DNA of 64,000 bases from Escherichia coli. Lineage in GTDB: Bacteria > Pseudomonadota > Gammaproteobacteria > Enterobacterales > Enterobacteriaceae. Position 1 is the stretch's first letter; every line of letters begins with the position of its first letter. The position numbers were made by a program, and so were the translations under genes. Below are positions 14,898 to 15,676 of this stretch, piece by piece. The notes beneath the pieces are model-generated. The model saw only the letters and a list, made by a program, of their open reading frames with translations. It had not been told where the DNA came from and searched no databases. The DNA lies in NCBI RefSeq assembly GCF_003019035.1, contig NZ_CP027447.1; one strand, 5' to 3'.

Positions 14898-15676
14898 TAT
14901 TCCCACCCAGAATAACCAACTTTATTTTTATGCGGTCTCACCGCACCCCGTGATGTCGCCGGGAAGCCCCGGTAAAAAATAATTAGCATTAGAATAGTTG
15001 CGATAAGCTGCAATAAGCAGAACCACCTTTTTGGTTTAATAAGTCCTTACAAATAGAAAGGGGTCTTTACACTTATCTAAGATTTTTCCTAAATCGACGC
15101 AACTGTACTCGTCACTACACGCACATACAACGGAGGGGGGCTGCGATTTTCAATAATGTGTGATGCAGATCACACAAAACACTCAATTACTTAACATAAA
15201 TGTATAAGTCATACTTTTGTTTTGGGTGTATTTCAATCTGTTAAAAAGTTTTTCGCAACGCTAGCAAGCAAAAATGAAACAGGAATAATCGAAATGGGAT
15301 GTTGCGCACAGTTAAAATAACTCACCGTAAATAATCATCTGCTATAAATAATCACTTTCATGCAATACCCGATAAGCTATTTTTAAACAGACACTTACCG
15401 CACAACAAACTAATTAAATACAAAGAAAGGCAACAATCAACCTAATGTTAATAAAATGTTTTGCATATATTAACCACTTGTTTAATATGGGAAATCAGTA
15501 CATTATTTTCTTATAAATACAGTTGAAATCATATGATCACCGAGAGTGATTGATTAATTATCTTTACTAATGACCAGACTAATATTTACCTGTTTTACTG
15601 AGTTGGGATTGCGTCGTTTCTCCATTAGGAGTAAAGCTTTAATGTCACCTGCAGTTCACAGAATAAGGAACAGGTT
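14898..15676. promoter_or_regulatory. flhDC promoter and long 5' UTR regulatory region; divergent uspC promoter
   Basis: About 780 bp AT-rich intergenic region upstream of flhD with no ORF; known in E. coli as a multi-regulator hub; individual sites not mapped here. Confidence 0.6.

Follow-up and report, generated by a model that had tools for sequence, protein, structure and literature searches.

Both motility and the expression of flhDC increase when insertion sequences (IS) enter the region between flhD and uspC of E. coli (PMC5100188; PMC11237407; PMC8652233). An IS5 hot spot at −96 to −99 has been ascribed to Barker et al. 2004 and Wang & Wood 2011 (PMC5100188), and activating insertions are also reported at −166, −303, −315 and as far upstream as −476 (PMC5100188). 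The insertion positions of Barker et al. 2004 and Fahrner & Berg 2015 are given here second-hand, through that paper. The upstream region is reported to bind RcsAB, OmpR, Fur, IHF, LrhA, MatA, YjjQ and H-NS, and to form an AT-rich tract that is destabilised by stress (SIDD) and preferred by IS5 (PMC5493358). An IS30 marker at uspC-flhDC has also been described, which was found in wastewater-adapted strains only and in none of 845 human and animal isolates or 1,177 genomes (PMC5007776).

Here we describe the flhD-uspC region in a stretch of E. coli DNA of 64 kb. The whole of this stretch is referred to as the window, and positions are counted from its first letter. The interval between flhD and uspC in the window is free of any IS, IS fragment or IS junction.

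The flhD-uspC interval and its strain background

The interval and its flanking genes are arranged as follows.

13966-14544, minus strand: flhC coding sequence, 192 aa (ORF list; RefSeq annotation of SCU-301)
14547-14897, minus strand: flhD coding sequence, 116 aa, with its ATG at 14897 (ORF list; RefSeq annotation of SCU-301)
14898-15676, between the divergent genes flhD and uspC: complete intergenic region, 779 bp (ORF list and sequence)
15677-16105, plus strand: uspC coding sequence, 142 aa, divergent from flhD (ORF list; RefSeq annotation of SCU-301)

Both flanking genes are intact. The FlhD protein of the window is identical to that of K-12, and FlhC carries one conservative change (D111E). 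GC content in the interval is 35.2%, as against 50.4% across the whole window, and reaches its minimum of 0.295 inside the interval, at 15200-15599.

SCU-301, which was isolated from the rectal swab of a healthy student, matches the window at 100.0% identity over 25 kb (5000-29999). The interval itself is 100% identical to that of at least 30 natural isolates, including SCU-301, ST648, ECONIH1 and MS6198. Its allele is nevertheless in the minority, as identity of 99% or more over the full length is reached in just 116 genomes. Compared with MG1655 there are 24 substitutions in the 779 bp, and identity to K-12 is about 96-97%. The window belongs outside the K-12 lineage, near-identity to MG1655 or W3110 being absent.

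Divergence from K-12 is uneven along the interval, with 98.7% identity in 14898-15202 (4 differences in 305 bp) and 95.9% in 15195-15676 (20 in 482 bp). The proximal part, which holds the leader, promoter and CRP site, is the closer to K-12, and the distal AT-rich part towards uspC is a minority, lineage-specific allele. Some sites further upstream, in the distal half (15195-15676), could differ from those of K-12.

Elsewhere in the window, two genes lie between flhB and cheZ on the plus strand (776-3005): a 502-aa dGTP triphosphohydrolase and an overlapping ORF of 250 aa. The 502-aa protein matches the PADLOC anti-phage dGTPase model PDLC02374 (E 9e-71) and the Pfam domains HD and HD_assoc; the 250-aa ORF had no match in Pfam or PADLOC. 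RefSeq labels the two genes in SCU-301 as ‘dgt’ and ‘hypothetical protein’, respectively. In K-12 there are presumably no genes between flhB and cheZ. The two genes probably make up a small accessory island against phages within the flagellar/chemotaxis region, with the 250-aa ORF as the uncharacterised partner gene.

Search for insertion sequences and the vacant hot spot

The first-pass annotation had described an AT-rich region of roughly 780 bp between flhD and uspC with no transposase ORF and no terminal inverted repeats. Its length is exactly 779 bp and its AT-richness relative to the window is borne out by the values given above. The longest ORF lying within it is 38 aa. A repeat finder returned no IS-type inverted repeats in the interval; its two hits, a direct pair of 13 nt and an inverted pair of 13 nt (85%-complementary), are at chance level. 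BLAST queries with IS1H of MG1655 (768 bp) and IS5 of W3110 (1195 bp) gave matches of at most 18 bp in the interval (E ≥ 0.02), and no better match came from the 64-kb window as a whole. In 5,421 of 5,426 complete E. coli genomes the interval is found at one place per genome (median 1, maximum 2), which means that multi-copy mobile DNA is absent from it.

The annotation also held that K-12 laboratory lineages often carry motility-raising IS1 or IS5 insertions at this locus. Both elements were seen, IS1 in MG1655 and IS5 in W3110; the effect on motility is that of the literature cited above. Alignment with these two genomes, as the annotation had proposed, found no IS fragment or junction in the interval, every base of which is matched by K-12 sequence lying outside the IS. 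MG1655 (NC_000913.3) shares the flanking genes and their orientation with the window, and its sequence is collinear, but IS1H (insA5/insB5) lies between flhD and uspC at 1978503-1979270. Its intergenic region measures 1555 bp, 776 bp more than the 779 bp of the window, which is the sum of 779 bp, the 768 bp of IS1H and 8 bp of duplicated target (CATAAATG). Against this genome the interval gives two gap-free BLAST HSPs, 14898-15202 and 15195-15676, that cover all 779 bases.

W3110, the flanks of which are likewise collinear with the window, carries an IS5 transposase gene at this locus, and its intergenic region of 1978 bp (1199 bp more than in the window) is made up of 779 bp, the 1195 bp of IS5 and a 4-bp duplication of TTAA. 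The gap-free HSPs are here 14898-15194 and 15187-15676, again with every base covered. The IS5 junctions in W3110 read TTACTTAA followed by GGAAGGTGCG at one end and GCACCTTCC followed by TTAACATAAAT at the other. BLAST HSPs were used for this comparison in place of a global MAFFT alignment, which misplaced IS5 and produced 141 spurious mismatches. The target sites of the two elements directly adjoin each other, and in the window they can be placed as follows.

15191-15194: unoccupied TTAA, single copy, the IS5 hot-spot target at −96 to −99 (W3110 junctions; PMC5100188)
15195-15202: unoccupied CATAAATG, single copy, the 8-bp target of which MG1655 has two copies around IS1H (alignment)
15191-15571: zone of the reported motility-activating K-12 IS insertions (−96 to −476), empty, the most AT-rich part (positions of PMC5100188 mapped)

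The TTAA equivalent to 15191-15194 is occupied by IS5 in W3110, DH10B, MC4100 and others, and is empty in the window. No target-site duplication, be it TTAA for IS5 or 8-9 bp for IS1, is present at the hot spot. The insertion positions from −166 to −476 map to about 15261-15571, and all of them are empty. YTAR tetranucleotides occur 16 times in 15096-15676.

The near-identical genome HS-02 (NZ_CP172818.1; identity to the window 99.9% over 25 kb) carries an insert of 173 bp exactly between the equivalents of 15194 and 15195 (1798-1970 of the compared HS-02 locus). The right end of IS1 (positions 654-768) is matched by the final ~80 bases of this insert (93-173). Only 5 of the 173 bases are G, and a target duplication is absent. 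The insert is either a degraded IS1 remnant or, more likely, an artefact of mis-assembly or of a miscalled consensus over a real IS1 insertion. If real, it would mean that the hot spot has been used in a natural isolate of the window's own lineage.

Interruption of the region is uncommon in E. coli. When the 779-bp interval was used as the query, 5,271 of 5,426 complete genomes kept at least 80% of it in one place, and in 118 it fell into two parts lying more than 889 bp from each other. A shorter query of 501 bp (15000-15500), used with a joining distance of 750 bp so that inserts of IS1 size break the match as well, left 5,244 genomes intact and 153 split out of the same 5,426. In 58 of 60 genomes sampled evenly down the ranking, the match was one unbroken piece of about 779 bp. 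Junction-specific 80-mers found the MG1655-type IS1 junction in 65 complete genomes and the W3110-type IS5 junction in 58. Among the matches listed, these genomes are mostly recognisable K-12 laboratory derivatives or of K-12 size (~4.5-4.7 Mb), and include MG1655, RP437, DH10B, MC4100, MC1061 and HMS174. Roughly 3-3.5% of the 5,426 complete genomes have an interrupted region, leaving ~97% uninterrupted, and the two K-12 alleles (65 IS1 and 58 IS5) make up about two thirds of the interrupted ones. An IS-free flhDC control region is already known and ordinary. It is the expected state in a natural isolate, and because it is the default there, the absence of an IS from the window is in itself almost uninformative.

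Regulatory anatomy and the CRP half-site

The regulatory elements were mapped onto the interval by homology with MG1655 and by their sequence, and lie as follows.

14898-15095, minus strand: flhDC 5′ leader, 198 nt, homology-mapped (lift-over from MG1655)
14876-15095, plus strand: region homologous to AsflhD, 220 nt in MG1655 (lift-over of b4839, 1978176-1978395)
15102-15130, minus strand: putative flhD core promoter, with −35 TTGTAT (15130-15125), a 17-nt spacer and −10 TACAGT (15107-15102) (sequence and spacing from the lifted-over start site)
15159-15174: predicted CRP site TGTGATGCAGATCACA, which matches the palindrome TGTGA-N6-TCACA perfectly and has its centre at −71.5 (sequence and alignment)

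We infer that flhD transcription starts at the G at 15095 on the minus strand, a position lifted over from the AsflhD end at 1978395 in MG1655, because three independent anchors agree on it: the AsflhD end, the TTAA at −96 to −99 and the CRP centre at −71.5. The CRP site of flhDp is reportedly centred at −71.5, a placement said to go back to Soutourina et al. in 1999. A scan for consensus promoters and terminators left the flhD promoter unflagged, its −35 hexamer matching at 3 of 6 positions; such weakness would fit a promoter that depends on an activator. The scan gave one promoter-like site, on the plus strand at 15289-15318, which is below the 3.4 expected from shuffled sequence, and it is not used as evidence. 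The leader differs from that of K-12 at three positions (14937, 15042 and 15060).

The AsflhD transcript begins at position +22 within the flhD ORF and spans almost the entire 5′UTR (PMC9600491). As there is no Rfam family for AsflhD, its region was mapped by lift-over; an Rfam scan of 13500-16500 at E ≤ 1 gave no match. As mapped by homology, the putative promoter, CRP site, leader and AsflhD region are all intact. In the annotation of MG1655 the sRNA MotR (b4828) overlaps the 3′ end of flhC and the motA 5′UTR (1209-1303 of the compared MG1655 locus), and the equivalent stretch of the window is at about 13908-14002 on the minus strand.

One of the differences from K-12 falls in the CRP site itself. 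At position 15159 the window has T (TGTGA) and K-12 has C (CGTGA-N6-TCACA). The 60-mer at 15110-15169, which takes in the promoter and this CRP half-site, is found identically in 3,867 of 5,426 genomes (71%), and the K-12 version in 410 (7.6%), many of them laboratory strains. The window carries the species-majority allele of the core promoter and CRP site, and K-12 a minority one, which should be kept in mind when K-12 flhDC regulation is extrapolated to wild strains. A literature search found no paper testing the T/C difference at 15159. The C-to-A change reported at −63 (PMC5100188) was considered as the same site and rejected, as it affects the adjacent base.

Origin of the uninterrupted state and comparison with known systems

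The interval is almost certainly the ancestral, uninterrupted flhD-uspC region of a natural, human-commensal E. coli resembling SCU-301, in which it would act as the cis-regulatory platform of flhDC. The absence of an IS, the collinearity with K-12, the identity of the site sequences and the population frequencies are direct observations, and no sequence evidence contradicts this reading. With start site, promoter hexamers, protein binding and regulatory outcome taken from K-12 homology or the literature, a weak σ70 promoter (TTGTAT-17-TACAGT, with its start at 15095) would be activated by cAMP-CRP from the consensus site at −71.5. The long AT-rich stretch upstream (15191-15676) would bind repressors and nucleoid proteins and so keep transcription down, and the 198-nt leader may be the target of post-transcriptional control, including that by the antisense RNA AsflhD. 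In K-12 laboratory stocks, IS1 or IS5 enters this AT-rich stretch, a short way upstream of the CRP site, and would thereby lift repression. No such activation has taken place in the window, where TTAA (15191-15194) and CATAAATG (15195-15202) are single-copy and empty.

An uninterrupted state could also have arisen by loss, an earlier IS at the hot spot having later been precisely excised, so that what is seen would not be ancestral. K-12 stocks do show mixed IS5+/IS5− populations, from which IS-free clones have been recovered (PMC11237407), and HS-02 bears its 173-bp insert with an IS1-like end at this very hot spot. There is no scar in the window, however: TTAA and CATAAATG each occur once, and every other IS-free genome is collinear with it here. 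Over the interval, identity reaches 100% in at least 30 natural isolates, and ~97% of genomes are IS-free. Ancestral absence is for these reasons far more parsimonious, and we consider a reversion very improbable; a precise excision would in any case be indistinguishable in sequence and of no functional consequence. An IS repeat might instead have been collapsed or skipped in the assembly of the source genome, IS elements being classic assembly breakpoints and the apparently garbled IS1 of HS-02 (5 G in 173 bp) lying at the same site. The chance of this is close to negligible, as the contiguous interval agrees at every base with dozens of complete genomes that were assembled independently, and has neither a junction-like discontinuity nor a residual IS end.

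A further alternative accepts that the interval is free of IS and questions whether it is native in the K-12 sense. Its SNPs, especially the T at 15159, may give intrinsically higher CRP-dependent transcription of flhDC than IS-free K-12 would have, as in most natural E. coli. Poor motility need then not follow from the lack of an IS, and the reliance of K-12 on IS would come in part from its minority promoter allele. The perfect TGTGA half-site in place of the CGTGA of K-12 points this way, as does the spread of the two 60-mers (3,867 genomes against only 410, many of them laboratory strains). A single half-site base may have little effect, though, and the low motility of IS-free K-12 is ascribed in the literature to upstream repression and not to CRP affinity (PMC5493358; PMC5100188). 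On balance, we regard the alternative as possible but rather unlikely. That the half-site base itself matters, so that natural strains could reach adequate flhDC levels without an IS and the IS reliance of K-12 would partly compensate for a weak minority promoter, seems to us doubtful.

The earlier suggestion that the strain retains native, tightly regulated flhDC expression stands in part. The cis-architecture is native and the core promoter and CRP site carry the species-majority allele; what falls away is the K-12 framing, the strain being an SCU-301-like natural isolate. The IS polymorphism of K-12 is irrelevant to this genome, and the motility of the strain cannot be predicted from the history of K-12 stocks. 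Tight regulation would be a phenotype beyond what the sequence shows, since expression of flhDC and motility also depend on SNPs and on trans loci outside the window, such as lrhA, clpX, hns, rcs and others. The empty hot spot (TTAA/CATAAATG, 15191-15202) means that IS insertions could still arise here under selection, as may have happened in HS-02.

Compared with the known systems, the window lacks what marks the IS-activated type of flhDC region, whether that of K-12 with IS1 or IS5 or that of wastewater strains with IS30: there is no IS DNA, no target duplication and no lengthening, the intergenic region being 779 bp long, where MG1655 has 1555 bp and W3110 has 1978 bp. The uspC-IS30-flhDC marker of wastewater-naturalised E. 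coli, a strain-typing locus, occupies the same region, where IS30 or ISEc33 is present; in the window the region is uninterrupted (PMC5007776). What the window does have is the native arrangement, with divergent flhD and uspC around an AT-rich, single-copy stretch of ~780 bp, collinear with its counterparts in other E. coli, and, at the level of sequence, a CRP-site sequence centred at −71.5 and a 198-nt leader. In this it resembles the natural IS-free isolates (SCU-301, ST648, ECONIH1, IAI1 and O157:H7), in which the region measures ~777-780 bp and is likewise recovered as a single BLAST piece. Other natural IS-free isolates are 96-98% identical to the interval of the window, with no difference of substance.
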